64,000 bases of DNA from Cyanidioschyzon merolae (Eukaryota): NCBI GenBank assembly GCA_000091205.1, contig AP006495.2. One strand, 5' to 3'. Shown here in pieces: positions 25,947-61,214 of this stretch. Position numbers and translations under genes: made by a program. Numbering within the stretch: the stretch's first letter is position 1; every line of letters begins with the position of its first letter. Under the pieces are notes generated by a model. It was not told where the DNA came from and did not search any database. It saw only the letters and a list, made by a program, of their open reading frames with translations.

Positions 25947-26209
25947 AACACGAACAGCAAACGCTTTTCAAAAGAAAAACGTTGCTGCCAGTGGTACAGT
26001 AGTGGCGAGTGTCCCGCCCTAGACAAGACGACGCCAACTGATGTGCAGACGCCTCGGAGGATTTCTCGGCGGGCCATGTACGAATGCTTTCAATCTTGTC
26101 TCATATAGTTCCACATTGAGAGGGTGTCCCACAAAGTTCTCTCCTGTCCACGATGGGGGCTTCTTTCCATCACCGCACATTTCCTTCCACTGCATGCGGC
26201 GTTCAAGTC

Positions 26210-26695: not shown

Positions 26696-26713
26696 AAAAG
26701 CTTGAAAGTCCGC

Positions 26714-27244
26714 TCATCGGATCGTCAGTGCGCTCAAAGCTGCCAGGTGATCCTTCATTCCTGCGTTCCATGTCTCAATTTTCTTCCTCGCATTCATTAT
26801 ACCGGATTCTCGAGAATATCTAGTTCTTGAGAACCTCAACAGACGCAAGTCGCTCTCACGTAAGTTGCCGTCAATGCCATCTACCGCACGCTTCGGTGCT
26901 GCGATGGTCATGATATTCGTATTCCCAGGGTCCGTGCCAACGACGAAGTCGTTATCCTGCACTTTCTATGTCGCAGGATCCGCCACCTTCTCATCTTCAT
27001 GCTTCGCCGCGTCAACGACGAGGCCCTTGTCATGCACCTCCTGTGTCGCGGGATCCGCCTCCTTCTCATCTTCATGCTTCACCGCCTCAACGACGAGGCC
27101 CTTCTCATGCACCTCCTGCGTCGCAGGATCCGCCTCTTTGATTTCTTCATCCTTCGTGACGGGCGCGGCCGAGGGCGGAACTGGACGATTTATCTTCAAC
27201 CGCCGATAGTGTACACACAAAGCTACTCCATCGGTTTCGATCAT
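26714..27244 (-). pseudogene. Element ORF3 (copy A), frameshifted inside the 69-bp repeat block; contains the RuvC-I-like motif
   Basis: Track ORFs 26966..27244 ([21 protein letters not shown]...EKVADPAT) and 26714..26962 (..[36 protein letters not shown]..) are the two halves of one reading frame that is intact in copies B and C. Copy A lost part of one repeat unit. Confidence 0.45.
26985..27140. repeat. In-frame 69-bp tandem repeat (23-aa [25 protein letters not shown]), about 2.3 units in copy A
   Basis: Same unit as at 32029-32212 (3 units) and 56542-56815 (4 units). Confidence 0.8.
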
Positions 27245-27456
27245 CCCCGTGGATACATTTCGCTTTCTGACTTTGAGACTTTTGAAATCGAAGATATTCT
27301 TTCAGTGCGTCTCATGGTTTTCGCCAGTGAAGTCCTCTCTGCTAACATTGAACTCGGGACTGATCTCCCTCATGATGCCGTAAAGGACGCCGGAATCGAT
27401 ACTCACAAAATGTGACTTGATGTTGCGCATTGGAACGACGTTGAAGCGCTTACCCA

Positions 27457-27942
27457 TTAGGATAGACTTCCATCTCTCTCACTCTTCATTTCCACCTTGC
27501 GTTCGAGCTCTCGGTCCAGAAACACGAAATATCGCAGGACAAGGCGATAGGATCTTTTCTTATCTTTTTTCAACTGTGATATCTTTTCTGCTGGATTCAC
27601 CAGCGCCAGCGCCGCACGGTGCTCTTGTATAACCGCACGGATGACAAAGACCTCATTCGTGCTCTGGTTTGACGCCTTCTCGTCGACGAATTCGATCTCA
27701 TGTTCATGCTTGCGATCGTTCCTTATGCCGTTGAGAATCGCCCGTATCCCTTTGCGAGACATGCCCTGGTAAAGTGCAAACACGGCGCGTATCATGAAAC
27801 GTTCGACGTTCATTGTCAAATGATTCTTCAGGTTCGTGACGCACTTCATCGCCCCGTATGCGTAGATATCCCAGTCACCCTTGTATCGAGTACCGTTGAT
27901 GCTGTAAAGGGTATTTCTCGTGGAGGGCGTGATTCCGCTCAT
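27457..27942 (-). CDS. Element ORF2 (copy A)
   Basis: 161-aa ORF MSGITPSTRNTLYSINGTRYKGDWDIYAYGAMKCVTNLKNHLTMNVERFMIRAVFALYQGMSRKGIRAILNGIRNDRKHEHEIEFVDEKASNQSTNEVFVIRAV..., 97-99% identical at protein level to copies B and C. It lies in the -1 frame relative to ORF1. Confidence 0.45.
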   Translation of the reverse strand: MSGITPSTRNTLYSINGTRYKGDWDIYAYGAMKCVTNLKNHLTMNVERFMIRAVFALYQGMSRKGIRAILNGIRNDRKHEHEIEFVDEKASNQSTNEVFVIRAVIQEHRAALALVNPAEKISQLKKDKKRSYRLVLRYFVFLDRELERKVEMKSERDGSLS

Positions 27943-28283
27943 TTTCCCTCCGCGCTTCCCGCTGTACCATGCATCAGGTATCGAAAAAACGTCTTGTCGA
28001 AGGATTCGCCCGGAATCTCGACCGTTTCCATGTGCGCCACATCGCGATACATCTCCCTCGCCAAATGCATCCGTCCTGACGACGCCTTGAGAATACTCTT
28101 GGAGTACGAGTCGACACGGTTCCTAATGGCCTCTCGCAACTTTTCCCTGTACGGATCCTTGACATGTCCAACAAGACAGGCTTTCACCGCCATCTCGGAG
28201 TACAGTTGTCTTTCTTGCCGCCTTCGACGTAGGGCCTCCCTCTTTTGCTTCATTTTTTCTTCTTGTTCTTCTGAACTCGGCAC
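27939..28283 (-). CDS. Element ORF1 (copy A; longest N-terminus of the three copies), basic N-terminal protein
   Basis: MPSSEEQEEKMKQKREALRRRRQERQLYSEMAVKACLVGHVKDPYREKLREAIRNRVDSYSKSILKASSGRMHLAREMYRDVAHMETVEIPGESFDKTFFRYLMHGTAGSAEGK. It ends on the conserved GGGAAAA-TGA junction and overlaps ORF2 by 4 nt. Confidence 0.45.
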   Translation of the reverse strand: MPSSEEQEEKMKQKREALRRRRQERQLYSEMAVKACLVGHVKDPYREKLREAIRNRVDSYSKSILKASSGRMHLAREMYRDVAHMETVEIPGESFDKTFFRYLMHGTAGSAEGK

Positions 28284-30962
28284 TGTTTCTTGTTTTTTTT
28301 TCTGGCAGCCAGCGACACTGAGCCTCAGGATCGTCGACTTGCTTTTTCATAACTTTCCTTTTTTAGGTTTTGTAAAAAGAACGCTTTTGAACGCTTCTGT
28401 TATAATCCGCAAAAAATCAATCGAACATTTTTACTTGAGGTTTGAAACACAAATGAAACCGAAAAACTGTACTTGGCTATGAACTCAACGAGAATACAAC
28501 TTTTACATCAGAGCTACACGCTAGAAATCACGATCACGTTTCCCGTCAACGGAGGCATACGCGTCGTGTCAGTTTACTGCCTGATCTCCCAGTTGCGCTC
28601 ACTGAGCGCGATGCGTGCACCTCGCCAGACGCCTCACCGATCGATGAAGGACACGTGTCCGACGCCGCATTGGCATATGCGTGTTCGCATCGCGTTGCAG
28701 CGGAAATAAAGTATCGTAGATCGGAAATTCACGCAGAGTAGTCTCTCGCTATAGGCTATGTCGCTGGTGCCGACGCTGCTACCCATCGCAGTACCGCCTT
28801 GACAGACATGTAGATGTTGGGGCCTTGCAAGAAACCCCTCGACGCTTCTATCAAAAGCGTAGCCATCGTAGTATCCTACGATCGTGCGGGTGAGGTATGC
28901 ATCACTCTACTCAATAGGAGTTTCGTTAGTTTTATTGATCGTAAACAAACAAGGCATAGTAGTGTTCCCGAACACGGATATGCGTTTAATCCCTGTGCTT
29001 GTTATGCAGGCTGCACGGACGCTGGGATGAGAAACTGGTTTGAGTTGTGCTTCTATCCTGCGTCATGGGCAGGTACTGATGGCAGGTCAAGTCATTGCCA
29101 TGCTGCCGTCGTTGTCCAAGTTATGATATCCGCTACTCTCTCGGATCCGGTGATCTCGGCAGAGGAATAGCGCACATGTAGCGTGCAGATGTATCACGGC
29201 GTTTGACTGACGCATCTCGCCTGGCACGTTCGAAGCATCCGCTAAAAGCGCATACTGTATTCTGGTCTATTCTCACCGTTTACTGGCAAGAGCCTAAAAT
29301 GTAGATAGCGGTGCAATCGTCAAACCGTGAACTTTTCCGTACCCCCGCCGCTCCATATGCTCCCGGATGCTCGGTGGCTGCCTGCTGGTTTCCCACTCTC
29401 ACCAGCAAAACTGCAGAACGGAAGGATTTTCTTTCTATCTTTTACCGTTCAATGACTGGAAACCGTTTCACGACCATGTAGGGTAAATTCATATCCACTC
29501 ACAGACGCCTCCCGGTCTTTTTGGACTGGCCAACAACTACTGTTTCCAACTTGTCCTTGGACAAGTTGGCAGTAGGAGGCTGTCCCACAAAGTCGGATCG
29601 CGTCAGCTCCGCCGGTCGCGCCTCCATCGTCATTCATCCGTTGATACTGATCGTGTTTTGTCTAAAACGCTTGTGATAGAGCTGAGGTCAAGAGGCGATC
29701 AATTTTGACCGACGCTATCACACGATCGGTACCAGAAGCTAAGGGCTGCAGCCGGCACCAGGTGCTCTTGTGACGGCATGCTGGCCGTGAAGAGTGCGTG
29801 ACGAAGCCGCATGGCACGCGAGGGTGTCCTAGTACATAAAACGAGGACGTGCCCGAGACGTTCAGATTCAGGGTAATGACGAGTCGCCGCTACGGTATTC
29901 TGGGAAAATAATCCGAGTGAGCTTTTGTTGCTCGAACATCGAGCACTATCACGAGTGTGGGTGCGTTTCACTGCACGGTTTGTAACGATCATAGAATCCA
30001 CCATCATCCAAAAGCGACGAAATGTCATACGCGCACCGGCCTCGTAAATCCAGGTCAGGACGTGCCCAGCAGCACGGAAACAAATTACGTGAACTGCTGT
30101 GCTTGCACCGAACGAAAGGAAGCATGCGTTTCCTCGACCGAAGATAGAGGCTTCCGAATTCATTCAGATACTGCCGATGTTTCGCCCGAACCCAGACCAC
30201 CATCTGCAATGTGCCCAAGACCATACACAGGATGCCTACGATTGTTTGCATCATCAAGTTAAGTCCTACTCACGCCAGTACCTCAGATATATAGTTCGGA
30301 CACGACACATGCTCGAAATGGAAGCCGTATGGGGTTTGCCGCAGGCGCCAACGGCACACCAGGTTGCCCGGCTCACCCGTGCCATTGCACACCACGCTTA
30401 TCCAAAACTCGGCTGCAACTGTAGCAGCGGCATCGCCAGCGTGTATGCATCGGCGCCATAGGATTTTTCATTGAGAAAACGTTTCCATTGACCATGGATC
30501 CCAGATTGCCGGATGGGCGCAGACATACGGGAAATCACTCTTTATGTTGTACCCTTATTTCTAGTTCCATTCGCGATTGTTCCTCTCGGATATACTGGTC
30601 ATTTTGCAGGTTATATCGTGCGCCTAGTGCGTGCCGTGCCTAATCCGCCTTGGCGCCTGAACCGCTGGAGCAGATATTTTTGGTAAAGACTGAACTGCTT
30701 TTCCGTACCGCTGAGGGTGTCGGATCAAGGAACGCTTCGTCTGATGTGGAGTAGGAGCACGTGATCATTCCGGGAGCCTGAAAACTGGGAGACATACGAT
30801 CTTTCTGCGACAGCGCGAAGCGATATACTAGGAGTGATCAACGACCAGGGTGATGCCCCGTCGCAGCATACCCGCTCCTAGTCCCAGAATAAAGTGCATT
30901 GCGAACGAGTTGCTCAGATTTAACCAAAGTACCTGTCACTGGGGCGGACATGAAGCGCAAGC

Positions 30963-31696
30963 TTGGGAACCTGTCTTCTTAAATATATCAAGGATCCGTA
31001 CAGGGAAAAGTTGCGAGAGGCCATTAGGAACCGTGTTTACTCGTACTCCAAGAGTATTCTCAAGGCGTCGTCAGGACTGATGCATTTGGCGAGGGAGATG
31101 TACCGCGACGTGGTGCACATGGAAACGGTCGAGATTCCTGGCGAGTTCGTCGACAAGACGTTTTTTCGATACCTGAAGCATGGTAGAGCGGGAAGCGCGG
31201 AGGGAAAATTGAGCGGGATCACGCCCTCCACGAAAAATATCCCTTTTACAGCTTCAAAGGTACTCGATACAAGGGTGACTGGGATATTCGCAGCTACGGG
31301 GCGATGAAGTGCGTCACGAACCTGAAGAATCATTTGACAATGAACGTCGAACGTTTCATGATACGCGCCGTGTTTGCACTTTACCAGGGCATGTCTCGCA
31401 AAGGGATACGGGCGATTCTCAACGGCATAAGGAACGATCGCAAGCATGAACATGAGATCGAATTCGTCGACGAGAAGGCGTCAAACCAGAGCACGAATGA
31501 GGTCTTTGTCATCCGTGCGGTTATACAAGAGCACCGTGCGGCGCTGGCGCTGGTGAATCCAGCAGAAAAGATATCACAGTTGAAAAAAGATAAGGAAAGA
31601 TCCTATCGCCTTGTCCTGCGCTATTTTCTGTTTCTGGACCGAGAGCTCGAACGCAAGGTGGAAATGAAGAGTGAGAGAGATGGAAGTCTATCCTAA
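30963..31696 (+). pseudogene. Element ORF1/ORF2 region (copy B), carrying two private 1-nt insertions
   Basis: Track ORFs 30963..31307 and 31304..31696. An extra t converts gggaaaatgagc to gggaaaattgagc, and a second indel near ..aaaaatatccctttt breaks ORF2 until MKCVTNL.. resumes the copy-C frame. Confidence 0.4.
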
Positions 31697-31908
31697 TGGG
31701 TAAGCGCTTCAACGTCGTTCCAATGCGCAACATCAAGTCACATTTTGTGAGTATCGATTCCGGCGTCCTTTACGGCATCATGAGGGAGATCAGTCCCGAG
31801 TTCAATGTTAGCAGAGAGGACTTCACTGGCGAAAACCATGAGACGCACTGAAAGAATATCTTCGATTTCAAAAGTCTCAAAGTCAGAAAGCGAAATGTAT
31901 CCACGGGG

Positions 31909-32439
31909 ATGATCGAAACCGATGGAGTAGCTTTGTGTGTACACTATCGGCGGTTGAAGATAAATCGTCCAGTTCCGCCCTCGGCCGCGCCCGTCACGAA
32001 GGATGAAGAAATCAAAGAGGCGGATCCTGCGACGCAGGAGGTGCATGAGAAGGGCCTCGTCGTTGACGCGGCGAAGCATGAAGATGAGAAGGAGGCGGAT
32101 CCTGCGACACAGGAGGTGCATGACAAGGGCCTCGTCGTTGACGCGGCGAAGCATGAAGATGAGAAGGAGGCGGATCCCGCGACACAGGAGGTGCATGGCA
32201 AGGGCCTCGTCGTTGGCACGGACCCTGGGAATACGAATATCATGACCATTGCAGCACCGAAGCGTGCGGTAGATGGCATTGACGGCAACTTACGTGAGAG
32301 CGACTTGCGTCTGTTGAGGTTCTCAAGAACTAGATATTCTCGAGAATCCGGTATAATGAATGCGAGGAAGAAAATTGAGACACGGAATGCAGGAATGAAG
32401 GATCACCTGGAAGCTTTGAGCGAGGTGACAAGCCGATGA
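31909..32439 (+). CDS. Element ORF3 (copy B): repeat-containing protein with RuvC-I-like motif
   Basis: ATG start; ..[10 protein letters not shown](E/D/G)KGLVV x3 ..[74 protein letters not shown], then TGA. Confidence 0.45.
32029..32212. repeat. In-frame 69-bp tandem repeat, 3 units (copy B)
   Basis: Direct reading; units start at 32029, 32098 and 32167. Confidence 0.8.
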
Positions 32440-32466
32440 GCGGACTTTGAAGCTTTTCTGAAATTC

Positions 32467-32943
32467 ATGCAAGTTCGCGTTGCTCATTGGGATGCGCTGT
32501 GGAAAGAGTACACCAAGCCCCGGTGGGCTCGATTGCGAATGAATCTACACTGTGGGAAGCGGCGCGCGTTCGCGAACTTTTTCAATCGGCTGAGCGCCCT
32601 GAAGGAGAATGAAAGTCAGAGGCTCATAGTAGCTTATTGGGCTGGGCGCTGGATGACCCAAAAAGGAACGACGCCAGCCCCGACGACAAGAACGTACAAG
32701 GAGTGCGCACACTGTTTCGTCACGATACCTGTAGATAAGTTCCGAACATCGTATACACGCCACGAGCTGGGGTGTACACTTCAGAGCGTCGAGAAAGGAA
32801 AGTGCCAGCGGAGCCCTGGTGATATACAAACGTACGGACCGCTGACCGAAGAGCAAATGGAAAGAAGGGCGAAAGTTCGAGGATTGCTCGCATTAGAAAG
32901 TACAACTACGAATGGCGAGAAACGCGTAGCGTTTGTGAATTGA
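32467..32943 (+). CDS. Element ORF4 (copy B)
   Basis: In frame with ORF3 across one TGA (32437-32439). ..KECAHCFVTIPVDKFRTSYTRHELGCTLQSVEKGKCQRSPGDIQTYGPLTEEQMERRAKVRGLLALESTTTNGEKRVAFVN. Confidence 0.45.
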   Translation: MQVRVAHWDALWKEYTKPRWARLRMNLHCGKRRAFANFFNRLSALKENESQRLIVAYWAGRWMTQKGTTPAPTTRTYKECAHCFVTIPVDKFRTSYTRHELGCTLQSVEKGKCQRSPGDIQTYGPLTEEQMERRAKVRGLLALESTTTNGEKRVAFVN

Positions 32944-33595
32944 GACTTGAACGCCGCATGCAGTGGAAGGAAATGTGCGGTGATGGAAAGAAGCTCCCAT
33001 CGTGGACAGGAGAGAACTTTGTGGGACACCCTCTCAATGTGGAACTATATGAGACAAGATTGAAAGCATTCGTACATGGCCCGCCGAGAAAGCCTCCGAG
33101 GCGTCTGCACATCAGTTGGCATCGTCTTGTCTAGGGCGGGACACTCGCCACTACTGTACCACTGGCAGCAACGTTTTTCTTTTGAAAAGCGTTTGCTGTC
33201 GGGGCTTCTCAAGGCCGAGCGCCCGGTCAACGTCGCGCTAGGCTGAACTCACTGACCTACGAGAGACGCCTTCCTAGTGTTCGTCTCGGTGCCTGGCGTT
33301 TGCATGGAACTTTCTCGACAGTCTATATCTGTTTCCACACTTTTACGACTGTTTACGTAGCCTTGACTGGTAGGTATCGGTAGCAGACTAAAACGCGGGT
33401 AGACTTTCGGTGACCGAATAGCCAAAGCGAGTCTGTCCTGTGCTAGGACGCTGTTGCTCGGCAGTCTCTACGCGACATAAGCGTCCCACTTGGTGGTCGT
33501 TGCTGCTGTTATTGTCGTGGTGTTGTTCTTGTTGGTGTCGGAGGTGGTAACTGGATCCGTGTCTCAGAACATTCCTGCCTCGCGGGTGCCACGAA

Positions 33596-38362: not shown

Positions 38363-39060
38363 GCTTTCCTATAATAACGGGAATCATAATCCAATGTATA
38401 TGGACATGCCTCCGGTGCTCTGGTCTCCGCACTGCAGCACGCTCGAACCAAGTGCGCTTCAAGTTCTCGATCTCTCCGTTCCAAGCGACGCCAGGGCGCA
38501 GCGATTGACGCCGTCGGATGTACGAAGAAAAATGCTCCATATCGGCAGTTGAAGAATTGCTCACAAGCTTATGAAAAAATTCACTTATCATGCTGCGTCA
38601 GTGAATCGATCCCGTTCGGGAAACGATTTCCTATGCCTTTGCGGCGATCGACGAAACGTACTTCGACGCCTGCATGATACCTGTCACGGGATTTGCTCCC
38701 AAAGGCTCTCGTCTCTTCTGTTTCCATGAGAAAGCGTCTTGGACTCCGACTTGAGTCATCGCAGCGATCGCTTCTTGTGGAGCGTGCGTCACTGTTTTCC
38801 ACGAAGAAAGTGGATTCGTATCGACATTTCTCGACTTGTTCTCCAACCTTGATTCTTCTTTCGGTATCTGTTTCATCTTGGCCAACATCATGTTCCAGAA
38901 ATCATCTATCCGCTGAAAAACCATGAGCTCGTGTGTGCAGCTGACAGAGTACATGGCAAGCGGATCGCCCAAATCAGTACTGTGACCCATTGGTACGGCA
39001 CCTCGGGCACGTAAGCGGAGGCGGGAATCGGGGAGTCTTCTGTGCCCGCCACGGGCATGC

Positions 39061-39432
39061 AGCGAGCGATGTGGCAAGCGCTCACACGGCATGAGGCAGC
39101 CTCCGGAGGACGTCAAGGCGGACACACAGGAAAGTTCCTGACCACACTCAAGTAGCGAGCGATGTGGCAAGAGCTCACACGGCATGAGGCAGCCTCCGGA
39201 GGACGTCAAGGCGGACACACAGGAAAGTTCCTGACCACACTCAAGTAGCGAGCGATGTGGCAAGAGCTCACACGGCATGAGGCAGCCTCCGGAGGACGTC
39301 AAGGCGGACACACAGGAAAGTTCCTGACCACACTCAAGTAGCGAGCGATGTGGCAAGCACTCACACGGCATGAGGCAGCCTCCGGAGGACGTCAAGGCGG
39401 ACACACAGGAAAGTTCCTGACCACACTCAAGT
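39061..39432. repeat. Minisatellite, 93-bp unit x 4
   Basis: agcgagcgatgtggcaag(a/c)gctcacacggcatgaggcagcctccggaggacgtcaaggcggacacacaggaaagttcctgaccacactcaagt, with unit starts at 39061, 39154, 39247 and 39340. It explains the periodic 268-aa minus-strand ORF 38631..39437, which is an artefact. Confidence 0.85.
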
Positions 39433-39748
39433 GTCATCGCCGCGACAGGCGCACCGAGTGTCCATCCAAAGAAGCTTCAGTGAGCAAGCGCAACGTCGAT
39501 CGCAGCTTCCGCCTTTAGGTAAACAATGCGATAAAAAAGCAGCAGTCGGAAACAACGAGCATCGGCACGCTTTATCTGCTATGAGTGTCTATCGACAGTT
39601 GCTCATAGAGCTGGAGCCCCAGAAGAGACCGACGTTCCTAAAAGTTGGAGATAAGACGCGGGAAACCGTAGCAGTCGAAAAAAAGTTTCGCATACGCAGG
39701 TATTGAGGATAGCAAGAAGATGCCGCAAACACGAGGGCGTGCGTTCGG

Positions 39749-45360: not shown

Positions 45361-48300
45361 CACACCCGGGCGCACGTCGTCTTTCTTGTGCAAGTCCTTC
45401 TCCAACCGGAAAGGTCGTCACCTAACGACATATACACGTGTATTCCATTTGAAGAAAGGAATATCCAAGGGAAAGGTATGGACGTGCGCGTCGAGGATCC
45501 TGGTGTGCCGTCATCACCAGGTAGAACAACAACCGAAAAACGAAGAAAATCCTCTTCTCGTCGATCATTGAGAGAGCGACGAAGAGCAGCTTACGACGAA
45601 GAAGAGGATGACCAGGAGAGATTGACGACAACAAACGTTTGCTCGACGTAACGATGACGAGACTGTAGTGGCAAAGCGAGCACGAGTTCGAGGACTCGCA
45701 GCAAAAGTGACTTTAGCCATCGTCAATGCACCCAGGGCGTTCGTGAACCGAGACTTGAACGCCGTCATCAATATCAGAAGATATGTGGTACTGAAGACGA
45801 AACCCGCGGAGCTGGCTTGATGTTATTTTATGGGGCAGCATCTCAGGCTCGAATTGTGCCTGGATGAATACTAGAACCGATAGAAGGCAGCCGGTCAAAA
45901 AATAGGCCGGGCGGCGTCTGCGAGTGAGTTTGTATTCACGCTCCATGGTCGTGAATCATTTCTCGTTCCACTGGCTTGTTGTTTTGAAGAATCAAGATGA
46001 TTCGCGACGCCCGCCAAAAAGGTGTATAACGTACCCCAAGTCACGAGCCAACGCTTACGCACGAGCCTCTACGCCTATCCATTCCATACATATGCAGTGG
46101 CCCAGTGATACATGCTTCAGGTTTTCGATCTCTCTGTTTCAAGGCGACTCGTGTGCGCAGCGATTCGTGCCACTGGTCTGAAGAGGAAACATAAAACGCG
46201 ATGCTTCCTTTTGACGACTCGTCCACAGGCAAATGCGGAACGGTCGCTGAACTTGTCAGGCCACGAAGCCGCTTCCGTGCGAAAGACCAATCCTGCTTTC
46301 GTTTCGAGCATAGGCGAAACGGCGCTTGACAACACCATGATAGCTCGCACAGCATAGACCGTGCGACGCCCTCATCTCTTCTGACTGCATGAAACTGGGA
46401 CTTCGACTCGGGCTTTCGTCATCGCAGCGATTGCGCCCAGTAGGGGAAGCGTAGAGAATTCGAGTTTGTTTGACTTTGTCTAGAGCCCGGATTTTCCTTT
46501 CGATCCTTGTTTCAGTATGAATGGGACTGCGCTCCACAAATCCATGATCCATTGGAACAGCATTCGCCTGCGTTTGCAGCGTACATCGTACTCGCTCATG
46601 GAATCGCCCAGAACACGCCAGTACTGGTAGGGTGCGGCATCGAGCGCGAAACCAGCAGGAAAACATCTGAGACAGCCTTCTGGTATCGCCAAGAGCATGT
46701 ACCGAGCGATGGAGCAAGTGTTCGCACGCCACAATGCGGCTTTCAGAGGAGCACGAGGCGTCGTTCGGGACGCACCGGAAAACCTGACTACCGGCAAGTG
46801 TACCTGCTTCGAGGGATGCACAGAGGCTGTTCACAGAGAAGATGCGCGTGCCTGGCGAAAGACTTCTAGATTGCAACTCCCACGTCTGCGAGGAATTTTT
46901 CTACGAGTTCTACTGCGGCGGCCTCGAGAATTCAACGCTGCTATGAGCATTCTTCGCCCGTCGACGACGGATCTGGAGGCATACAGCGGAACGGAGTCAT
47001 GAAAACCGGACACACGGGAAAGGCAATGGACGCTGTCGCAGAAAGACCGCGTAAAGGCTGGTACTGAATGGTCGTAAGAAAATATTCAATCCTGTCCGTT
47101 TACGCCCGTATTCGCGGACCTGGTTCATGTGCTTTCGCAATGGGTGTCACGAAGACTCGCCATGTCGTTTCAATCAATTCCTCACGATCAAGTAGGACGG
47201 ATGATCCTCGTCAGATTCTCCAGCTATGCAAGGACCGACGATAACCCTGCCGGTTGGCTCGTGAAATCCACGCCCGTGTCCAGATTCCACAAACACCAGA
47301 CTAGTATATATCAAGACCGATCCGTGAATCATTGGGGGCTCCTGGCCGACACAGAGCGCTCACGAGCCCACTGGATACGGCGGTGCCGACCTCGTTGTGC
47401 GGAAGCACGACCGCGTTCTTCGCCCCGCTACCGAATCCACAGACCTAATCGAATGCAAACGAAATGCTCACGAGCATCCAAATGACTTTTTCGAGTCTTT
47501 GACGGGCGATCGACACGGCTCCTGCTGCGCATCCCGGATCGATGCGGGGAGGTGCTGGGCAGCGAGCCTTGCAAAGGTTCGGGTTACCGGGGCGATAGAC
47601 TGCACCTCTTGCCTAGATGTTGCTGTGTTGCACCGTCTCCAGAACAAAGCTGACCTGCAGCATTGTTTATAATCTATCGATCGCTGGGTCTACCAGTAAC
47701 CCGGTCAGTTTCAAGACGCTCGTAGCGTTTCGCCTTCGACACGAGGCACACAGCCTCGTACGTTGTCGTACGGAAGCGCAGCAGCATCGACTTTCCGCAG
47801 CGACCGCCGACTGCTTTGTACCAGGATGACCACCACAGCTCCATTGCTTCAGCAGAACGCCTCGATAACGAGACTCGACTACTCGATATCGTCTATGGGC
47901 ATGGTGCATCGATTCGATAGCAAGAAAAGTCAGACGTTGGTTGAGATATCGACAGCGTCTGGTGTACCCGTGCATCCGGGTATGGCGTGCCTCGCACCCG
48001 CAGCGTATCATGCAGTACTCGTGCAATGCGTATTCGCTGGCACCTCAGCACTGAACGCGACTACGACACCTTTGCCTCTGCCTGGGGACACCCACGCTCG
48101 CTGATGGTCTAGAGTATAGCGTGAATCCAACCGAGCGCTCAGATTCAAGCGTAACAGCGACAGTGTTTCGGATGCGCTCCGGCGTGCGACGGGATGCACC
48201 GTGCAGGACGCAAGCGCAAGAGAAACGCATCCGTTCGCATGAAGTATCCGTTGGATGGATTGCTGTTCGCATTCATATCTCAATAGATGCATCGACGAAG

Positions 48301-53543: not shown

Positions 53544-54863
53544 CTACCTCTTCAAAATAAAGGCGCGCAACGCAGGCAAAAACATGGTGACAAAATAATA
53601 CACGAGGGGCGCTGTAAATACAAAACTATCGGTTCGATCGAGAATTCCTCCGTGGCCGGGAAGCGCCCAGCGGAAACGTCCCCCAAACGCTGTTGCAGGC
53701 GAGTCCTTGAATCCTGCGTCACGCTTGAAGAGGGAGGCTGTCAAATCTCCCAGAAGGCCCACGACGCCAATCAGGATTCCGTAGAGGGTGCCGGTGAGCC
53801 ACCAGAGCGGCCATCTCATCAAGAAAGCTCCCAATATCGAAACGAGTGCAGAACAGAGGAAGCCTCCGATGGCGCCTTCGACGGTCTTCTTCGGCGAAAT
53901 GTCGCTGAGTTTGCGGCGCCCGAACGCGCGGCCAATAAACAGCGCACCGATATCACTACTTGCCACTGAGAGCCAGGTCCACCAGGTTAGGGCTGCGCCT
54001 ACGGTCCAGCCTTCCGGTGGTGGCAACCAGCCTGGCCACAGCACATCGGGGAGACGCGATACCACCGCTGGAAAGCGCGTCTGCTCAATGCCACCGAGAG
54101 CTCGCATGCGAACCCAGAAGGTCGGCAGGTATCCAGCGTAAAACATTCCCATGAACGTTGTGCTGATGTCGGCGATCGTAGCGAACTTCTCCCGGCGATG
54201 CAGCAGCATGTAGGTACAGATCAGCGTCGCTGAGACCGGGAACACGGCCTCTGATGCCTGCGGTGCTGCTGCGGCTACCCACAGCGCCAAAATAGACGCC
54301 GCTATCCCAGCGCGTTGTGCCGGTCGGATGCCCTTTGCCCGCACCATGTTATAATACTCAAGTTGACCGAGCACTGCGACAACTGTCAGACCGGCCGTAA
54401 ACACCCAGATACCCGCCAGAATCCAGGTCGTGGCAACCAAACCCATAACAATGCCGGACACCACTCGGACAGCCAGATCACGTGCCGGACGCGTGGTGGC
54501 CACCGCAGCTACCAAGGCTGCACTTCTCGCGTCCGCTGGGCGCTCGGAGGCAACCACTGCGCTCCCTACGCTTTGAGCGCCCGCACCTGCCGCTGCAGCT
54601 GGAGTCGAAGCGGTGTCCGCTCCATCGCTGCTGGCTGGTGTCGCATCCAAGCAGCGCAAACGCGGCACCGCGGAGCAGTCCGCTGACGTCGGTACCCCAG
54701 CAGTGAAGCGCCCTCGAGTCGGCAACGCAGTTCGAGGCAGCGAGACGCCAGCGTCAGAGCGCCTCGCGGTTCGCGGAGGTCGTCGGCACGGTGCTCGTCG
54801 GTGCTGTCGCACGCCTTCCAAGTGGGGTAGCGCTTGCCACCCGTGCACTGTAGACACCCACAT
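53544..54863 (-). CDS. Phosphatidate cytidylyltransferase (CDP-diacylglycerol synthase) with a roughly 140-aa low-complexity N-terminal extension
   Basis: C-terminal CTP_transf_1 signature KRDAGFKDSPATAFGGRFRWALPGHGGILDRTDSFVFTAPLVYYF (GHGG-x-DR-x-DS) and multiple TM helices. First ATG at 54861-54863. Confidence 0.8.
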   Translation of the reverse strand: MWVSTVHGWQALPHLEGVRQHRRAPCRRPPRTARRSDAGVSLPRTALPTRGRFTAGVPTSADCSAVPRLRCLDATPASSDGADTASTPAAAAGAGAQSVGSAVVASERPADARSAALVAAVATTRPARDLAVRVVSGIVMGLVATTWILAGIWVFTAGLTVVAVLGQLEYYNMVRAKGIRPAQRAGIAASILALWVAAAAPQASEAVFPVSATLICTYMLLHRREKFATIADISTTFMGMFYAGYLPTFWVRMRALGGIEQTRFPAVVSRLPDVLWPGWLPPPEGWTVGAALTWWTWLSVASSDIGALFIGRAFGRRKLSDISPKKTVEGAIGGFLCSALVSILGAFLMRWPLWWLTGTLYGILIGVVGLLGDLTASLFKRDAGFKDSPATAFGGRFRWALPGHGGILDRTDSFVFTAPLVYYFVTMFLPALRAFILKR

Positions 54864-55490
54864 ATCCTTGGACAAGGACGTCGACTAGCGACCGAGGCAC
54901 ACAGACTCCCGGTACAACGCTAGCTCCAGATAATGTATGCCAGATTGCCTTATTGTAATTGACGTCGTCGTCGGTAGCGTTGTGGCTGCTGAAGCCATTT
55001 CTTCGATGAGAAGACGTTTGTATGGATCATGGATTCTAGATTGTGGGGTGGATATTGAAATCAATGCCAGTGCTCAATATGATTCGCTCTTACGCCAAGT
55101 TTCATGGTCTGTTCTCGGATATACTGGTAATTTCGTATGTTCTATCGTGCGCTGAGTACCTGCATTGCTGCATCCGCAATAGAGCCAATGCTGCTAGTGC
55201 GGATGCTGAATGGAGACAGAACGGTTTTGCCATATCCATGGGGGTATCGGATCGAGGAATGCTTCATTGAATACGGAATCGGGATTCGTCAACATTCTGG
55301 AAGCCTGGGAGATGTGCAGTTAGACCTACTGCCTGCAGCAGCGCGAAGCGATATACTAGGAGTGATCAACGACCAGGGTGATGCCCAGTCGCAGCATACC
55401 CGCTCCTAGTCCCAGAATAAAGCGCATTGCGAACGAGTTGCTCAGATCTAACCAAAGTACCTGTCACTGGGGCGGACATGAAGCGCAAGC

Positions 55491-55739
55491 TTGGGAACCT
55501 GTCTTCTTAAACATATCAAGGATCCGTACAGGGAAAAGTTGCGAGAGGCCATTAGGAACCGTGTCGACTCGTACTCCAAGAGTATTCTCAAGGCGTCGTC
55601 AGGACGGATGCATTTGGCGAGGGAGATGTATCGCGATGTGGCGCACATGGAAACGGTCGAGATTCCGGGCGAGTTCGTCAACAAGACGTTTTTTCGATAC
55701 CTGAAGCATGGTACAGCGGGAAGCGCGGAGGGAAAATGA
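55491..55739 (+). CDS. Element ORF1 (copy C; TTG at track start, N-terminus truncated by a TGA relative to copy A)
   Basis: ..CLLKHIKDPYREKLREAIRNRVDSYSKSILKASSGRMHLAREMYRDVAHMETVEIPGEFVNKTFFRYLKHGTAGSAEGK, ending in GGGAAAA-TGA (55730-55739). Confidence 0.4.
   Translation: MGTCLLKHIKDPYREKLREAIRNRVDSYSKSILKASSGRMHLAREMYRDVAHMETVEIPGEFVNKTFFRYLKHGTAGSAEGK
55730..55739 (+). promoter_or_regulatory. Candidate -1 ribosomal frameshift site: heptamer G_GGA_AAA followed by a TGA stop, with the ORF2 ATG in the -1 frame
   Basis: gcg gag gga aaa tga (frame 0: AEGK-stop). The -1 frame reads ggg aaa atg agc gga = GKMSGITP... GGGAAAA fits the X_XXY_YYZ pattern. It is identical in copies A and C; copy B is fused in frame by a 1-nt insertion. 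Confidence 0.35.
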
Positions 55740-56221
55740 GCGGAATCACGCCCTCCACGAAAAATACCCTTTACAGCATCAACGGTACTCGATACAAGGG
55801 TGACTGGGATATCTACGCATACGGGGCGATGAAGTGCGTCACGAACCTGAAGAATCATTTGACAATGAACGTCGAACGTTTCATGATACGCGCCGTGTTT
55901 GCACTTTACCCGGGCCAGTCTCGCAAAGGGATACGGGCGATTCTCAACGGCATAAGGAACGATCGCAAGCATGAACATGAGATCGAATTCGTCGACGAGA
56001 AGGCGTCAAACCAGAGCACGAATGAGGTCTTTGTCATCCGTGCGGTTATACAAGAGCACCGTGCGGCGCTGGCGCTGGTGAATCCAGCAGAAAAGATATC
56101 ACAGTTGAAAAAAGATAAGGAAAGATCCTATCGCCTTGTCCTGCGCTATTTTCTGTTTCTGGACCGAGAGCTCGAACGCAAGGTGGAAATGAAGAGTGAG
56201 AGAGATGGAAGTCTATCCTAA
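55736..56221 (+). CDS. Element ORF2 (copy C)
   Basis: MSGITPSTKNTLYSINGTRYKGDWDIYAYGAMKCVTNLKNHLTMNVERFMIRAVFALYPGQSRKGIRAILNGIRNDRKHEHEIEFVDEKASNQSTNEVFVIRAVIQEHRAALALVNPAEKISQLKKDKERSYRLVLRYFLFLDRELERKVEMKSERDGSLS. Confidence 0.45.
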   Translation: MSGITPSTKNTLYSINGTRYKGDWDIYAYGAMKCVTNLKNHLTMNVERFMIRAVFALYPGQSRKGIRAILNGIRNDRKHEHEIEFVDEKASNQSTNEVFVIRAVIQEHRAALALVNPAEKISQLKKDKERSYRLVLRYFLFLDRELERKVEMKSERDGSLS

Positions 56222-56433
56222 TGGGTAAGCGCTTCAACGTCGTTCCAATGCGCAACATCAAGTCACATTTTGTGAGTATCGACTCTGGCGTCTTTTGCAG
56301 CATCATGAGCGAGATCAGTCCTGAGTTCGATGTTAGCAGAGAGGACTTCACTGGCGAAAACCATGAGACGCACTGAAAGAATATCTTCGATTTCAAAAGT
56401 CTCAAAGTCAGAAAGCGAAATGTATCCACGGGG

Positions 56434-57039
56434 ATGATCGAAACCGATGGAGTAGCTTTGTGTGTACACTATCGGCGGTTGAAGATAAATCGTCCAGTTC
56501 CGCCCTCGGCCGCGCCCGTCACGAAGGATGAAGAAATCAAAGAGGCGGATCCTGCGACGCAGGAGGTGCATGACAAGGGCCTCGTCGTTGACGCGGTGAA
56601 GCATGAAGATGAGAAGGAGGCGGATCCTGCGACACAGGAGGTGCATGACAAGGGCCTCGTCGTTGACGCGGCGAAGCATGAAGATGAGAAGGAGGCGGAT
56701 CCCGCGACACAGGAGGTGCATGACAAGGGCCTCGTCGTTGACGCGGCGAAGCATGAAGATGAGAAGGAGGCGGATCCCGCGACGCAGGAGGTGCATGACA
56801 AGGGCCTCGTCGTTGGCACGGACCCTGAGAATACGAATATCATGACCATCGCAGCACCGAAGCGTGCGGTAGATGGCATTGACGGCAACTTACGTGAGAG
56901 CGACTTGCGTCTGTTGAGGTTCTCAAGAACTAGATATTCTCGAGAATCCGGTATAATGACTGCGAGGAAGAAAATTGAGACACGGAATGCAGGAATGAAG
57001 GATCACCTGGAAGCTTTGAGCGCGCTGACGACCCGATGA
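56434..57039 (+). CDS. Element ORF3 (copy C): 4 x 23-aa repeats followed by a RuvC-I-like motif
   Basis: [36 protein letters not shown]([25 protein letters not shown])x4 ..[33 protein letters not shown]... The G-T-D-P-(G/E)-N-T-N-I-M-T-I-A pattern resembles the RuvC-I motif (G-I-D-x-G-x-x-x-x-A/T) of TnpB/Cas12/Fanzor nucleases. Confidence 0.45.
56542..56815. repeat. In-frame 69-bp tandem repeat, 4 units (copy C)
   Basis: Unit gaggcggatcc(t/c)gcgac(a/g)caggaggtgcatgacaagggcctcgtcgttgacgcgg(c/t)gaagcatgaagatgagaag, with starts at 56542, 56611, 56680 and 56749. Confidence 0.85.
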
Positions 57040-57057
57040 GCGGACTTTCAAGCTTTT

Positions 57058-57543
57058 ATGAAATTCATGCAAGTTCGCGTTGCTCATTGGGATGCGCTGT
57101 GGAAAGAGTACACCAAGCCCCGGTGGGCTCGATTGCGAATGAATCTACACTGTGGGAAGCGGCGCGCGTTCGCGAACTTTTTCAATCGGCTGAGCGCCCT
57201 GAAGGGGAATGAAAGTCAGAGGCTCATAGTAGCTTATTGGGCTGGGCGCTGGATGACCCAAAAAGGAACGACGCCAGCCCCGACGACAAGAACGTACAAG
57301 GAGTGCGCACACTGTTTCGTCACGATACCTGTAGATAAGTTCCGAACATGGTATACACGCCACGAGCTGGGGTGTACACTTCAGAGAGTCGAGAAAGAAA
57401 AGTGCCAGCGGAGCCCTGGTGATATACAAACGTACGGAGCGCTGACGGAAGAGCAAATGGAAAGAAGGGCGAAAGTTCGAGGATTGCTCGCATTAGAAAG
57501 TACAACTACGAATGGCGAGAAACGCGTAGCGTTTGTGCATTGA
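57058..57543 (+). CDS. Element ORF4 (copy C): Cys-rich C-terminal module, in frame with ORF3 across a single TGA (57037-57039)
   Basis: ..TRTYKECAHCFVTIPVDKFRTWYTRHELGCTLQRVEKEKCQRSPGDIQTYGALTEEQMERRAKVRG.. shows a T-x-T-x-x-E-C-x-x-C ... C ... C ... D arrangement reminiscent of the TnpB Zn-finger plus RuvC-III segment. I cannot identify the RuvC-II glutamate with confidence. Confidence 0.4.
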   Translation: MKFMQVRVAHWDALWKEYTKPRWARLRMNLHCGKRRAFANFFNRLSALKGNESQRLIVAYWAGRWMTQKGTTPAPTTRTYKECAHCFVTIPVDKFRTWYTRHELGCTLQRVEKEKCQRSPGDIQTYGALTEEQMERRAKVRGLLALESTTTNGEKRVAFVH

Positions 57544-58028
57544 GACTTGAACGCCGCATGCAGTGGAAGGATATGTGCGGTGATGGAAAGAAGCTCCCAT
57601 AGTGGACAGGAGAGAACTTTGTGGGACAATCACTAAAAGTTGAACTATATGAGAAAACCATGGAAGCAGGAGTAGATGGCCGCTCCAAAAAGACGTGACA
57701 GAGTTTGCACCTCAGTCAGAGACTTCTTGTCTAGAGCGTATTTCTCGCCACTACTGCGTACTGCTGCCGGCAGCAACGTTTTTCTTTTGAAAGACGTTCG
57801 GTGTTTAGAAATCGCCGGCGCTGGCTCATCGGCTCTCTCCTGTGTCGTCTATTGACGCAAAGATTTGTGTTTTTTGTGCTTCCTAGCTTCGACGCTGAAG
57901 CGTTTGCGGCGTGCTCAGTGAACTTTGTACTCTGTTCACTGATCGGTAATCCGGGACGCGTTATACGACGCGCGCACTTAGCATTTATTGGCTACTTTTC
58001 GAGCTCAATCTTCCAAGCCTAAGTTTCA

Positions 58029-60953
58029 ATGGCACCTGCTCGTGGAGATTCAGAGGCGGCTCCAAGCGCAGACGCACCGACAACGCCCGCTTGCTGGCCC
58101 AGTTCTCGTGTGCGTCAAACATTCATCGATTATTTCATCGACAGGGGACACACTTTCGTAGAGTCGTCACCAGTGGTGCCTTTCGACGACCCGACACTGC
58201 TCTTCACCAACGCTGGTATGAACCAGTTCAAGCCCCTGTTCCTGGGTCGGGTGGATCCGACCTCACCCCTATTCGGCCTGAAACGCGCGTGTAACACCCA
58301 AAAGTGCGTGCGTGCCGGTGGGAAGCACAACGACCTGGACGATGTCGGCCGGGACACCTATCATCACACCTTTTTCGAGATGCTCGGCAACTGGTCGTTC
58401 GGCGACTACTTCAACGCCGAGGCGATCAACTGGGCATGGGACCTACTGACCCGCGTCTACGGACTCGATCCGGACCAGCTCTACGCAACCTACTTTGGTG
58501 GAGACGCTGCGAACCAGTTGCCCGCCGACCTTGATACTCGTGACCAGTGGCTGCGCTACCTGCCACCAGAGCGAGTGCTTCCATTCGGAACCAAGGATAA
58601 TTTTTGGGAAATGGGCGAGACTGGACCCTGTGGTCCCTGTACGGAAATTCACTATGACCGCGTTCGGGGTCGACCCGCGCACCAAGCTGCTGCCCTAGTC
58701 AATGCCGGTCACGAGTCGCTGATCGAGATCTGGAACCTCGTGCTGATCCAGTTCAACCGGGAACCAGACGGACAGTTGCGTCGGTTGCCTGCGCGTCACG
58801 TCGACACCGGCATGGGACTGGAACGTCTCTGCGCAATTCTGCAGGGAAAATCCTCAAACTACGACACCGATATGTTTGCGCCTCTGTTTGCAGCGATTCA
58901 GCGAGAGTCTGGATCGAGTGAAGCGTACGCTGGTCGGCTGGGTGCCACCGACTCTGCACTCACCGACACTGCCTATCGAGTTGTTGCCGATCACATACGC
59001 ACCCTGACGTTTGGCATCGCCGATGGGGCGGTACCCTCGAACGAAGGTCGAGGCTACGTTCTGCGCCGTATCCTGCGCCGCGCTGTGCGCTACGGGCAGC
59101 AGTTTCTGAACGCACCCCGCGGTTTTCTACACCGGCTCGTTCCGGACGTCGCACGGCTCTATCAAACGACGTTCCCTGAGGTGGCTGCAAAGGCTGACTA
59201 CATCGCTGGTGTCATTCAAGAGGAGGAGATGGCATTCAGTATGACGTTGAAACGCGGGTTGGATCGTTTCCACGAGACTGCACGGGCGCTCGTCGCGGCG
59301 GGTGAGCGCGTCTTTCCTGGCAAAGAGGCCTTCTTTCTGTATGACTCGATGGGCTTTCCGCTGGATTTGACCCAAATTCTGGCGAGGGAACGGGGCCTTG
59401 AAGTTGACGTCGAGGCATACGAGTCCGAAATGGCTCGTCAACGCGCGCAGTCGAGTGCTGCTCATCGGAAACGGCTCGGAGCGGCAGAAGCGCTCGTGCT
59501 CGGACCAGAGCCGCTTGCTGTCCTCTCTGAGCAATGGAAGATTTCACCAACAGACGACTCGCACAAGTATCAGTGGTACGAACCGCTCGAATGTACCGTA
59601 TTGGCGATCTACGCTGGCTCCGAGGGATTTTTGCCGGCTGCAGAGACCGGTGACGACGCCTGTGTTGGCGTCATTCTGGATCGAACGCCCTTCTACGCAG
59701 AGGCTGGCGGCCAGGTCGCAGACACCGGCCGTCTGGATGAGCGGTTTCACGTAATCAACGTGCAATCTTTTGGCGGCTATGTCGTCCATATCGGCTACGG
59801 TCGCATCGCAGTCGGTGAGCGAGTGATCGCGCACGTGGACTACGAACGACGGGCGCTGGTGGCGCCGAACCACACCGCTACGCACATCCTGAACTGGGCA
59901 ATATGGCAAGTCCTTGGCCAGCAGTGTGACCAGAAAGGTTCGTTGGTTGATGAACAAAAGCTCCGTTTTGACTTTGCGTACGGCCGTGGGCTCACCGCTG
60001 CCGAGTTAGAGCGCATCGAGCAGTGCTGTCGTGAAGTGATCGCTCGCAATTTCGTGGTCTACACACAGCAGGTCTCTCTGACAACCGCGAAGCAGATACG
60101 ATCGTTGCGCGCGGTATTCGGTGAGACCTACCCCAGTGAGGTTCGTGTCGTATGCATCGGAGCACCGGTGGAGAAAGTGCTTGCGGCTCCTGTGCAATCC
60201 GACTGGGACCAGTATTCGATTGAGTTGTGCGGGGGCACCCATTTACAGCGCACCGGGGAAGCGCACGCCTTCTGTCTCGTGGAAGAGGGCGCGATTGCGA
60301 AAGGCATCCGACGCGTGGTGGCCCGTACCGGGGCCTCAGCGCTCGAGTGCATGGCACTCGCGCGAGGTCTTGCCAGTCGCCTTCCGCCGGTGCCTGTAGG
60401 GTCCGCGGCTGAGAATGGTGCAAGCGGCGCTTCTGTGGATGCTTCCATGCCGCCCGTTGATCTGCTGACGACCTTGGCCGAGTCGCTCAAGGCGATCACC
60501 ATATCGGCGTCGGAGAAGGAGCGCCTTCGACAACGTCTGGACTATTGGGAGCGGATGGCTCGGAAGCAAGCGAAGCAGGTAGCCGCGGCACGCGAGCAGG
60601 CTCTCGTGGATGAGCTCGTACGGCTCGTGAACAATCCGCAGCAGGACGCAGGTTCACCAGTACGGCAGGTTCCCGTTGTTGTGGCTGCGCTTCCTATTGA
60701 CGGTGATCGCCGGATCCTGCAGGGCATGCTTCAGAGCGCCCTCAAACGTCTAGGCAGCGGGGTATGGGCGCTTCTGATTGCATCGCCGGAGCGCAACGAC
60801 GAATGCCTTGTTGGATGTGTCGCCGCGTACGAGGCGCAGCGCGCTGGTCTTGACTGTAGCCGATGGTTGACCGAAACCCTGGCCCCTTGGCATGGACGCG
60901 GTGGTGGCAAACCGGACGCAGCACGCGGCTCCTGTCGATTGCTTTCACCAATC

Positions 60954-60994
<41 letters not shown>

Positions 60995-61214
60995 CGCTGA
61001 TAGGACAGCGTCGATTCGAGAGGGGGATCCTGAACGAAACATCTATTATCTGGACAAAGCACTCATAGCTTTACATGATAGTATATTAACAGACAAAAAG
61101 GAAATTGCAGGGCTTCGACCGCTGCTGGAGCGAGCGGCACGCCTAGCGAATGCCGCGCTAGCGTCTTCCTTCGTTTCGACATCGACGTCGACGAGATCGG
61201 GGTCTGCTGCATAG
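58029..61214 (+). CDS. Alanyl-tRNA synthetase (class II), cytosolic type, with a polyQ insertion and a C-terminal extension
   Basis: ATG start. FIDYFIDRGHTFVESSPVVPFDDPTLLFTNAGMNQFKP (motif 1 region), FFEMLGNWSFGDYF, GPCGPCTEIHYD, TGMGLERL (motif 3), editing-domain HTATHIL...CGGTH, C-terminal DHHA1-like GGGKPDAARGS; (Q)13 at 60961-60999; 1061 aa. Confidence 0.95.
60961..60999. repeat. (CAG)13 microsatellite encoding polyglutamine inside the AlaRS C-terminal region
   Basis: cagcagcag.. x13 read directly; the antisense gives the polyC/polyA runs seen in minus-strand ORFs. Confidence 0.9.

Follow-up and report, generated by a model that had tools for sequence, protein, structure and literature searches.

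Three pseudogenised copies of a Fanzor1-type mobile element, very probably CMe-1A, in a 64-kb stretch of the Cyanidioschyzon merolae genome

CMe-1A and its copies in the window

CMe-1A, a mobile element already described from Cyanidioschyzon merolae, is of neither the LTR nor the TIR type. It has a consensus of 3169 bp that encodes a 734-aa Fanzor1, is present in about 150 genomic copies with a unit of about 3 kb, lacks TIRs and begins with 635 bp that equal TE-N2_CMe; identity between the published copies and this consensus is about 80% (Bao & Jurka 2013, Mob DNA 4:12; PMC3627910; Repbase). From a single intronless ORF, an intact CMe-1A encodes a protein of about 734 aa, a eukaryotic homologue of TnpB with a RuvC nuclease of the D-E-D type. 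Further systems that invite comparison are the solved Fanzor1 nucleases SpuFz1 (8GKH), PpFz (9CF0) and GtFz (9CER), and the bacterial TnpB of IS200/IS605 (ISDra2, 8H1J).

The window, by which we mean the whole stretch of 64,000 nucleotides analysed here, contains a unit of 2.2-2.8 kb three times, always co-linear, with a shared core that is 93-100% identical from copy to copy. An ORF at 33596-36367 matches exactly the C. merolae 10D protein XP_005537164.1, which rules out a trypanosomatid or oomycete origin, considered on the basis of composition. When the CMe-1A consensus, taken from Additional file 2 of PMC3627910, was compared with the window copies by blastn, DNA identity was 83-84% over consensus 671/1075-3169 and 76% over positions 1-494, a range that fits the published value; tblastn with the 734-aa CMe-1 protein gave 58-79% identity, per segment. 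Membership in CMe-1A was judged by a nucleotide similarity to the consensus of at least about 80% over most of the length, which all three copies show. Like CMe-1A they come from C. merolae, have a single Fanzor1 ORF and terminate 3′ in ...GTTTTTCTTTTGAAAGGCG, and their 5′ module equals TE-N2_CMe except in copy A. We regard it as very probable, then, that the three segments are pseudogenised copies of this element. The earlier note, which had guessed at a Fanzor, was correct in this, but the family is not a new one; the element is the CMe-1A/CMe-1 of Bao & Jurka 2013, known since that year. The youth that was also proposed applies to the high-identity tract described below but not to the family, which is old, as the divergence of the published copies from their consensus indicates.

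Copy A, on the minus strand at 25962-28586, corresponds to consensus 671-3169 (blastn against the consensus) and keeps N-terminal coding sequence from residue ~12. Unlike CMe-1A, it carries another 5′ module in place of TE-N2_CMe, reaching to ~29250; this 5′ extension is also present at 10-11 metagenome loci. Copies B (30469-33191, plus strand) and C (55004-57796, plus strand) differ from CMe-1A by an internal deletion of consensus 495-1074, with the junction at 30966/30970 in B. In C, consensus 1-494 corresponds to 55004-55494 at 76% identity and consensus 1075-3169 to 55498-57796 at 84% (blastn against the published consensus), so that this copy, like B, has lost its ATG and some 57 codons at the N-terminal end. 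The window copies also differ from CMe-1A in forming a subfamily with common inactivating lesions and additional 75-nt repeat units. The repeats reported earlier at three sites are thus real, and the limits given for B and C agree with ours within ~30 bp, but the 5′ limit of 28250 given for copy A was too short, since the copy extends to 28586.

Fanzor1 homology and the RuvC motifs

Homology to the Fanzor structures was visible only after distant relatives had been added to the profile. Pfam offered no credible family for the four single ORFs, for five close homologues or for all 35 members of a shallow alignment, and the only precomputed label was "DUF8286 (weak)". A phmmer search of the PDB with the repaired C-terminal 395 aa found only a chance match to angiogenin, and a profile of 35 near-identical Cyanidiales proteins did no better. 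An AlphaFold model built on the shallow alignment had a pLDDT of 40.9 and was not used. The profile search collected 1385 relatives, among which is one sequence of a green alga, Haematococcus lacustris; this contradicts the lineage-specificity suggested earlier as a possibility; 197 close homologues have intact VDEFRTS and VNRDFNAAIN motifs. The joint family profile matched PpFz with E=1.1e-21, SpuFz with 2.6e-14 and GtFz with 7.9e-7, and a profile from which the Cyanidiales rows had been removed matched the four window ORF pieces with E values of 9e-39, 8e-21, 1.7e-16 and 1.3e-13. The Pfam families OrfB_IS605 and OrfB_Zn_ribbon were matched neither by the window ORFs nor by their close homologues.

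The Fanzor/TnpB fold (WED/REC plus split RuvC) was examined with an AF2 model of P0004, a close homologue that is 71% identical to the repaired window protein, rather than with a broken window copy. This model (pLDDT 84.3, pTM 0.78) was compared with the PDB by Foldseek, and the best seven matches were all Fanzor structures (SpuFz, PpFz, GtFz; E 1e-12 to 1e-8), SpuFz being the best with a TM of 0.60, followed by TnpB 8H1J and Cas12 proteins. Profile and fold searches, both of which reach solved Fanzor1 structures, support the prediction that the element encodes a TnpB-like, Fanzor1-type RuvC protein, as had been proposed. The DPG, (D)E(F/Y)(R/K)T and NRD motifs and a "TDGVS" strand align with SpuFz1, PpFz and GtFz, although sequence identity to them is only 13-14% and the Cyanidiales family has a low-complexity repeat insertion before RuvC-I. 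With bacterial TnpB the family shares the RuvC fold and the D-E-D motif order, but TnpB matches the model less well than the Fanzors do (E 1e-2, TM 0.2-0.3). The family protein, from a eukaryotic host, is also about double the length of TnpB and has a large helical N-terminus. The window element, like IS200/IS605, is without TIRs and has hairpin-capable sequences beside both ends of its core; it differs in having no TnpA-like gene, nor any second gene. A TnpB sensu stricto (IS200/IS605, IS607; ~400 aa) was rejected in view of the eukaryotic genome, the lack of Pfam matches and the lack of TnpA.

All three copies contain VVGTDP(G/E) and the ten residues that follow it (C 56815-56831, B 32215-32231, A 26938-26922). 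In copy C (plus strand) this RuvC-I motif reads GTDPEN, with its D codon at 56821-56823 kept. GTDP(G/E)N is found in 3/3 window copies, and the aspartate is invariant across an alignment of 80 sequences, which bears out the earlier assignment of the DPG motif to RuvC-I. The RuvC-II site had been described as showing no clear glutamate. The glutamate is indeed absent, but the site itself is recognisable as VDKFRT (copy C, 57331..57347, plus strand), with AAG at 57337-57339 where the catalytic GAG is expected. This loss, seen in 3/3 window copies, belongs to these copies and not to the family, whose consensus and metagenome homologues read VDEFRT. RuvC-III, with the family consensus VNRDFNAA, reads VH*DLNAA in copy C (57535..57557, plus strand); NRDxNAA is recognisable, but the CGA codon for R has become TGA, the stop of ORF4, and the D codon (57544-57546) comes immediately after it.

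The string T-x-T-x-x-E-C-A-H-C ... C ... C, which had been likened to a zinc finger and RuvC-III region, exists in ORF4, but the alignment places it upstream of RuvC-II, and it is neither. The CxxC...CxxC that lies between RuvC-II and RuvC-III is not found in the Cyanidiales family, which reads TSYTHHELGC...VRGLLALVST at this place, and of 41 scored relatives 2 and 3, respectively, keep the two cysteine pairs. The family and its scored relatives thus mostly lack zinc ligands that the solved Fanzor1 proteins possess. Pfam PF07282 gave a single match, below threshold, in one relative.

Remains of a single gene

The four-ORF module described in the earlier note is present in the copies, although the lengths are not exactly those stated. 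Copy C has ORFs of 82+161+201+161 aa, copy B of 114+130+176+158 aa and copy A of 114+161+(92+82)+161 aa, one additional stop having split ORF3 in A. In copy C (plus strand throughout), ORF1 and ORF2 at 55491..56221 correspond to CMe-1 residues ~57-289, from the helical N-terminal part of the protein (tblastn in frames 3 and 2, and translations), and are separated by a frameshift at ~55736. A frameshift or deletion at ~56200-56221 leads into the frame of the remaining protein, 56188..57543, which covers residues ~295-687. This frame is interrupted by TGA at 56374-56376, at a conserved W, and at 57037-57039, at a conserved G, and ends with the TGA at 57541-57543 that replaces the R of NRD. The C-terminal 48 residues of CMe-1 follow at 57588..57731 in another frame, after a third frameshift at residue 687 (tblastn). 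Directly upstream of the RuvC-I strand, at 56542..56815, lies an in-frame tandem repeat of 75 nt (25 aa) with 3.7 units, compared with 2.7 in A, 2.7 in B and one in the CMe-1A consensus; ORF3 differs in length between copies because the number of these units differs.

Three frameshifts and three in-frame TGA codons, at the conserved W, G and R, are common to all three copies, as is a G-to-W change in the conserved AYGAG strand. The consensus has an uninterrupted ORF of 734 aa, and L010 an open ORF of 722 aa. Across ~80 copies conservation is lower at the third codon position than at the other two, which reflects past selection on the protein. As judged from these reading frames, the "four ORFs" are pieces of one broken gene and the window copies are pseudogenes, so that none of the three is predicted to be capable of making the ~734-aa protein.

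Could the gene nevertheless be alive, with splicing, programmed frameshifting or TGA recoding joining the pieces into one product? Every in-frame stop is a TGA, and there is an ATGA overlap at the ORF1/ORF2 junction, as such a reading would have it. Yet the flanking host ORFs, of 924 and 1061 aa, use the standard code and have no in-frame TGA, which also rules out an alternative genetic code with TGA as a sense codon. At each of these positions the homologues and the consensus run on collinearly, with no break; the TGAs stand for the consensus codons TGG, GGA and CGA, and the shift at 56200 is a deletion relative to "...MELSEEKNEESERRKAALMGKRF". In addition, the catalytic E is changed to K, the start codon is missing in B and C, and introns occur in only 0.5% of C. 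merolae genes (PMC1955436). A live gene is thus highly improbable, and the recoding or splicing formerly invoked is not needed, as comparison with the uninterrupted homologues shows the interruptions to be indels and nonsense mutations. Domestication is also conceivable, with the copies acting as nuclease-dead, RNA-guided DNA binders in the manner of the TldR regulators, which derive from TnpB: the RuvC-II glutamate is lost in every copy, and copy C fills the gap that separates two divergent host genes. The probability of this is close to nil: three frameshifts and three stops leave a longest ORF of 201 aa, and what is found is several mosaic copies instead of one conserved gene at one locus.

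Spread of the copies and the ends of the element

Because every lesion is common to all copies, the near-identical sequence was evidently copied after the gene had died. The pattern of identity bears on how this happened. A tract of copy C at 55344..57627 (plus strand) is 96-98% identical to B 30810-33027, whereas the element sequence flanking it is only 60-75% identical. Since high identity ends abruptly inside the element at both ends, the near-identity of C to A and B most likely goes back to ectopic gene conversion, in which an internal tract of 2.3 kb was copied into an older resident element; this reading rests on identity breakpoints in one pair of copies, and recombinant master elements could mimic the pattern. 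The chief alternative is that a dead, non-autonomous subfamily was recently transposed whole, in trans, by an unknown transposase, with no gene conversion. TnpB is not the transposase, and a dead ORF is compatible with mobility. By analogy, a Fanzor would not be expected to act as one either, so that the dead ORF need not block movement. Moreover, the 97-100% identity of copies A and B persists to the 3′ terminus and is lost in the flank, and B and C have one deletion junction in common. Whole-element transposition predicts uniform identity, but in the first 340 nt of the element B and C agree at only 60-70%, and in the last 170 nt C differs from A and B by 25-38%; inside the element, identity changes sharply to 96-98%. 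We consider this alternative possible but doubtful, and prefer gene conversion for copy C.

Copy C ends in a hairpin, AACGTTTTTC-TTTT-GAAAGACGTT, at 57775..57798 (plus strand), with equivalents at 33170-33193 in B and 25983-25960 in A, and is followed by a semi-conserved TTYGYTGT. Most copies retain this hairpin, with 88.5% of cells paired, against 44-59% in slid controls, although shuffles attain the observed values. Pairing potential is conserved, with no compensatory pairs within the common type. There are two hairpin types in different registers, and for this reason we do not claim covariation as proven; for the 3′ 380 nt of 28 copies, RNAalifold yielded a covariation term of -0.44 kcal/mol, which is almost none. 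Rfam at gathering thresholds had no match in the window. Candidates for a target motif are the T-rich GATTTTTTT on the left and TTYGYTGT on the right. Hairpin-capable ends bound a core that is found with several different 5′ modules.

By analogy with Fanzor1 and TnpB systems already characterised, the nuclease of an active copy would be guided by RNA transcribed from the 3′ end of the element and would cut element-free target sites, whereupon homologous repair would re-copy the element. A broader reading has four linked parts, and we think it unlikely as a whole. CMe-1 would have spread and become homogenised chiefly through homology-directed copying (homing or gene conversion) into related residents such as TE-N2_CMe, not by classical transposition; the published CMe-1A would be a composite of TE-N2_CMe and a core of ~2.5 kb; this core would be bounded by subterminal hairpins like those of IS200/IS605 or Helitrons, a 5′ GCGCTCAGTGAGCGC palindrome and the 3′-terminal stem-loop; and the CMe-1 clade of Fanzor1 would function without a zinc ribbon.

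As a discovery these copies add little, since the C. merolae Fanzor1 is among the founding examples of its family (2013) and all three are dead. For annotation, the loci should be masked as CMe-1A pseudogenes and not entered as four hypothetical genes. Three side observations may be relevant beyond this: the copies are mosaics in their identity to one another, the core has hairpin-capable ends, and zinc-ligand cysteines are mostly missing from the Cyanidiales family and its scored relatives. If the broader reading were true, CMe-1 would constitute a natural eukaryotic record of a TnpB-style "cut and re-copy" lifestyle. C. merolae is genetically tractable, and its genome is tiny and fully finished; it would thus lend itself well to studying the mobility of Fanzor elements that have no recognisable transposase.

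Identity of the repeated element

Searching the full window for repeats recovered the three segments claimed in an earlier note: copy A (25962-28586, minus strand), copy B (30469-33191, plus strand) and copy C (55004-57796, plus strand). The search returned inverted repeat pairs of 1961, 1249 and 1084 nt with 94-97% identity, as well as direct pairs linking the region at 30-33 kb with that at 55-57 kb. In a three-way alignment the shared core is 93-100% identical and the flanks are unrelated. The four-ORF module described in that note was upheld in that each copy has a similar set of short ORFs (ORF1 to ORF4), but these are comparable rather than identical. ORF1 of copy C is 82 aa. ORF3 is 201 aa in C, 176 aa in B and split (92+82 aa) in A, and its length differs because a 75-nt in-frame tandem repeat varies in unit number (3.7 in C, 2.7 in B, 2.7 in A). 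Copy C occupies nearly all of the intergenic space between a divergent ORF (53544-54875) and an alanyl-tRNA synthetase-like ORF (58029-61214, plus strand), in which 12 consecutive glutamines lie close to the C-terminus. A minus-strand ORF of 268 aa (38631-39437) contains an unrelated tandem repeat at 39061-39432, with 4.0 copies of a 93-nt unit that are 98% identical.

A 924-aa ORF adjoining the copies exactly matches a Cyanidioschyzon merolae 10D protein. CMe-1A, the one Fanzor1 family listed for this alga (Bao & Jurka 2013, PMC3627910), has a consensus of 3169 bp, about 150 copies that are about 80% identical to it and a single-exon protein of 734 aa (CMe-1); it has no TIRs, its TSDs are given as undetermined, and its 5' 635 bp match another element, TE-N2_CMe, with 95% identity (PMC3627910). 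When the consensus (Additional file 2 of PMC3627910) was aligned to the window, copy A matched positions 671-3169 with 83-84% identity, while B and C matched 1-494 (76%) fused directly to 1075-3169 (84%). One internal deletion, common to B and C, has thus taken out about 57 codons together with the start codon. From this alignment and a tblastn search with CMe-1, we identify the segments as three copies of the published element; it was therefore already known, and the novelty proposed for the family is not borne out. There are also isolated CMe-1-type fragments at 29496-29651 (minus strand), 45626-45930 (plus) and 6969-7230 (plus). Two of them derive from the C-terminal/3' end (67-74% identical to consensus positions about 2850-3093; protein identity 49-58%), and the third is a 5' piece resembling TE-N2_CMe (68% identical over consensus 4-264). 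Together with the 29.5-kb fragment, the inverted pair A/B makes up a local nest of elements.

Three-frame translation revealed that the ORFs are consecutive pieces of a single reading frame. In copy C coordinates, ORF1 passes to ORF2 via a one-base shift, and ORF2 enters the frame of ORF3 via a second shift near 56200-56221. The ORF3 frame reads on past TGA codons at 56374 and 57037 into ORF4, which terminates at TGA 57541, and the final 48 residues sit in yet another frame. The interruption sites are identical in A, B and C, and tblastn with CMe-1 gave the same frame changes. Relative to the consensus, the copies have in common three frameshifts, the nonsense changes TGG→TGA, GGA→TGA and CGA→TGA, a GGA→TGG change within AYGAG, and a GAG→AAG change in the catalytic glutamate codon. 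Each copy is one broken gene rather than four, and A, B and C are dead pseudogenes; the suggestion that they are recoded was wrong.

Relationship to Fanzor1 nucleases

Single-sequence and shallow-profile searches detected no Fanzor relationship. The repaired C-terminal half of the protein retrieved 197 close homologues, 55-80% identical, from metagenomes that we take to be from hot springs; all are uninterrupted, with the motifs VVAYGAGRW, VDEFRTS and VNRDFNAAIN intact. When 1.84 billion representatives were searched with a profile of these proteins, 1385 more distant relatives emerged, one of them a Haematococcus lacustris protein. In an 80-sequence alignment the D of DPG and the E of DEFRT are invariant, and the RD of NRD is nearly so. 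The corresponding profile matched the Fanzor1 structures 9CF0 (Parasitella parasitica, E=1.1e-21), 8GKH (Spizellomyces punctatus, E=2.6e-14) and 9CER (Guillardia theta, E=7.9e-7), with the catalytic motifs aligned. As a control for circularity, the profile was rebuilt without the Cyanidiales rows, and it still matched the ORF fragments of the window (9e-39, 8e-21, 1.7e-16 and 1.3e-13). With the deep alignment AlphaFold produced a confident model of a close homologue (pLDDT 84.3, pTM 0.78). The seven PDB entries closest to it are Fanzor structures without exception (TM up to 0.60), and TnpB and Cas12 proteins come next. These profile and fold matches bear out the Fanzor1/TnpB-like kind that had been proposed from the sequence.

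The DPG motif is RuvC-I, as had been suggested. The cysteine string of ORF4, TRTYKECAHCF, had been read as a zinc finger with RuvC-III, and here the reading fails: in the profile without Cyanidiales the string aligns upstream of RuvC-II, and RuvC-III lies outside ORF4. RuvC-II is VD[E]FRT, downstream of the string, and has become VDKFRT in A, B and C (K codon AAG at 57337-57339 in copy C). ORF4 stops at what was the R codon of NRD, mutated from CGA to TGA, and the RuvC-III codons D, L, N, A and A come after it. The usual CxxC...CxxC zinc ligands are absent in the Cyanidiales family and in most of the scorable relatives.

Another Fanzor1-like remnant, far more diverged, is located at 23401-23900 (plus strand). 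Its ORF (23401-23814) opens with MVDVDPRSMNMIAGAV, an RuvC-I-like DP motif; the Fanzor profile matches 23456-23740 (E=4e-7) and 23610-23900 (E=2e-5), and CMe-1 residues 502-689 match 23628-24176 by tblastn with 31% identity. This remnant is probably an old copy belonging to a different Fanzor1 lineage.

Ends and modules of the element

Anatomy beyond the published description was drawn from 80 metagenome loci holding CMe-1-type copies (L002-L081). A 3'-terminal hairpin, more stable on the sense strand, is present in most copies, both in these loci and at 57775-57798 (C), 33170-33193 (B) and 25983-25960 (A). At least two versions of its sequence occur, a common one of 10 bp and an alternative of 12 perfect bp. 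Pairing potential is conserved in the common version (88.5%, compared with 44-59% in slid controls), but no compensatory changes were seen in it. Beyond the published consensus end, the hairpin is followed by a semi-conserved TTYGYTGT(YGCTGC). At the left end a conserved T-run precedes the TE-N2 part. The core begins near consensus position 650 with a short palindrome, which reads GCGCTCAGTGAGCGC or, in part of the copies, GCGCGGTCGATACGCGC. Upstream of the core there are at least four alternative modules: TE-N2 in forward or in inverted orientation, and two more besides. One of these last two, common to 10-11 metagenome copies, is the 5' module of copy A (28586-29250, minus strand, about 650 bp), which is not TE-N2_CMe and holds GTCGGACACGTGTCCTTCATCGATCGG. 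Because the Fanzor core occurs behind several alternative 5' modules, the data suggest that the published CMe-1A consensus is a composite. The 3' stem-loop and the 5' core palindrome recall the ends of IS200/IS605 or Helitron elements, a descriptive likeness. No evidence of a structured guide RNA came from Rfam or from consensus folding of 28 3' ends, whose sequences are too similar and mostly coding.

Origin of the copies and constraint on the family

Identity between B and C reaches 96-98% only across 30810-33027 (B) and 55344-57627 (C). The first 340 nt (30469-30810 and 55004-55344) and the last 170 nt (33027-33191 and 57627-57796) can still be recognised as element sequence, at just 60-75% identity, and the change in identity is sharp and falls inside the element at both ends. 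Transposition of a whole element should yield uniform identity, whereas conversion yields a mosaic, and this pattern therefore suggests ectopic gene conversion between resident copies rather than whole-element copying. A and B are alike right to the 3' terminus, so that either process could explain their likeness.

The family overall did evolve under protein-level constraint: in about 80 copies, conservation is lower at third codon positions (0.76-0.87) than at first and second ones (up to 0.95). The JGI metagenomes Ga0078972, Ga0080006, Ga0207433, Ga0123519 and JGI24721J... contain, on contigs of up to 176 kb, hundreds of CMe-1 copies whose DNA is 79-90% identical to the C. merolae consensus. 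At least one of the copies (L010:2743, plus strand) has an open ORF of 722 aa with all three RuvC motifs. Since the metagenomes hold such copies, potentially active members of the family may exist in wild relatives.
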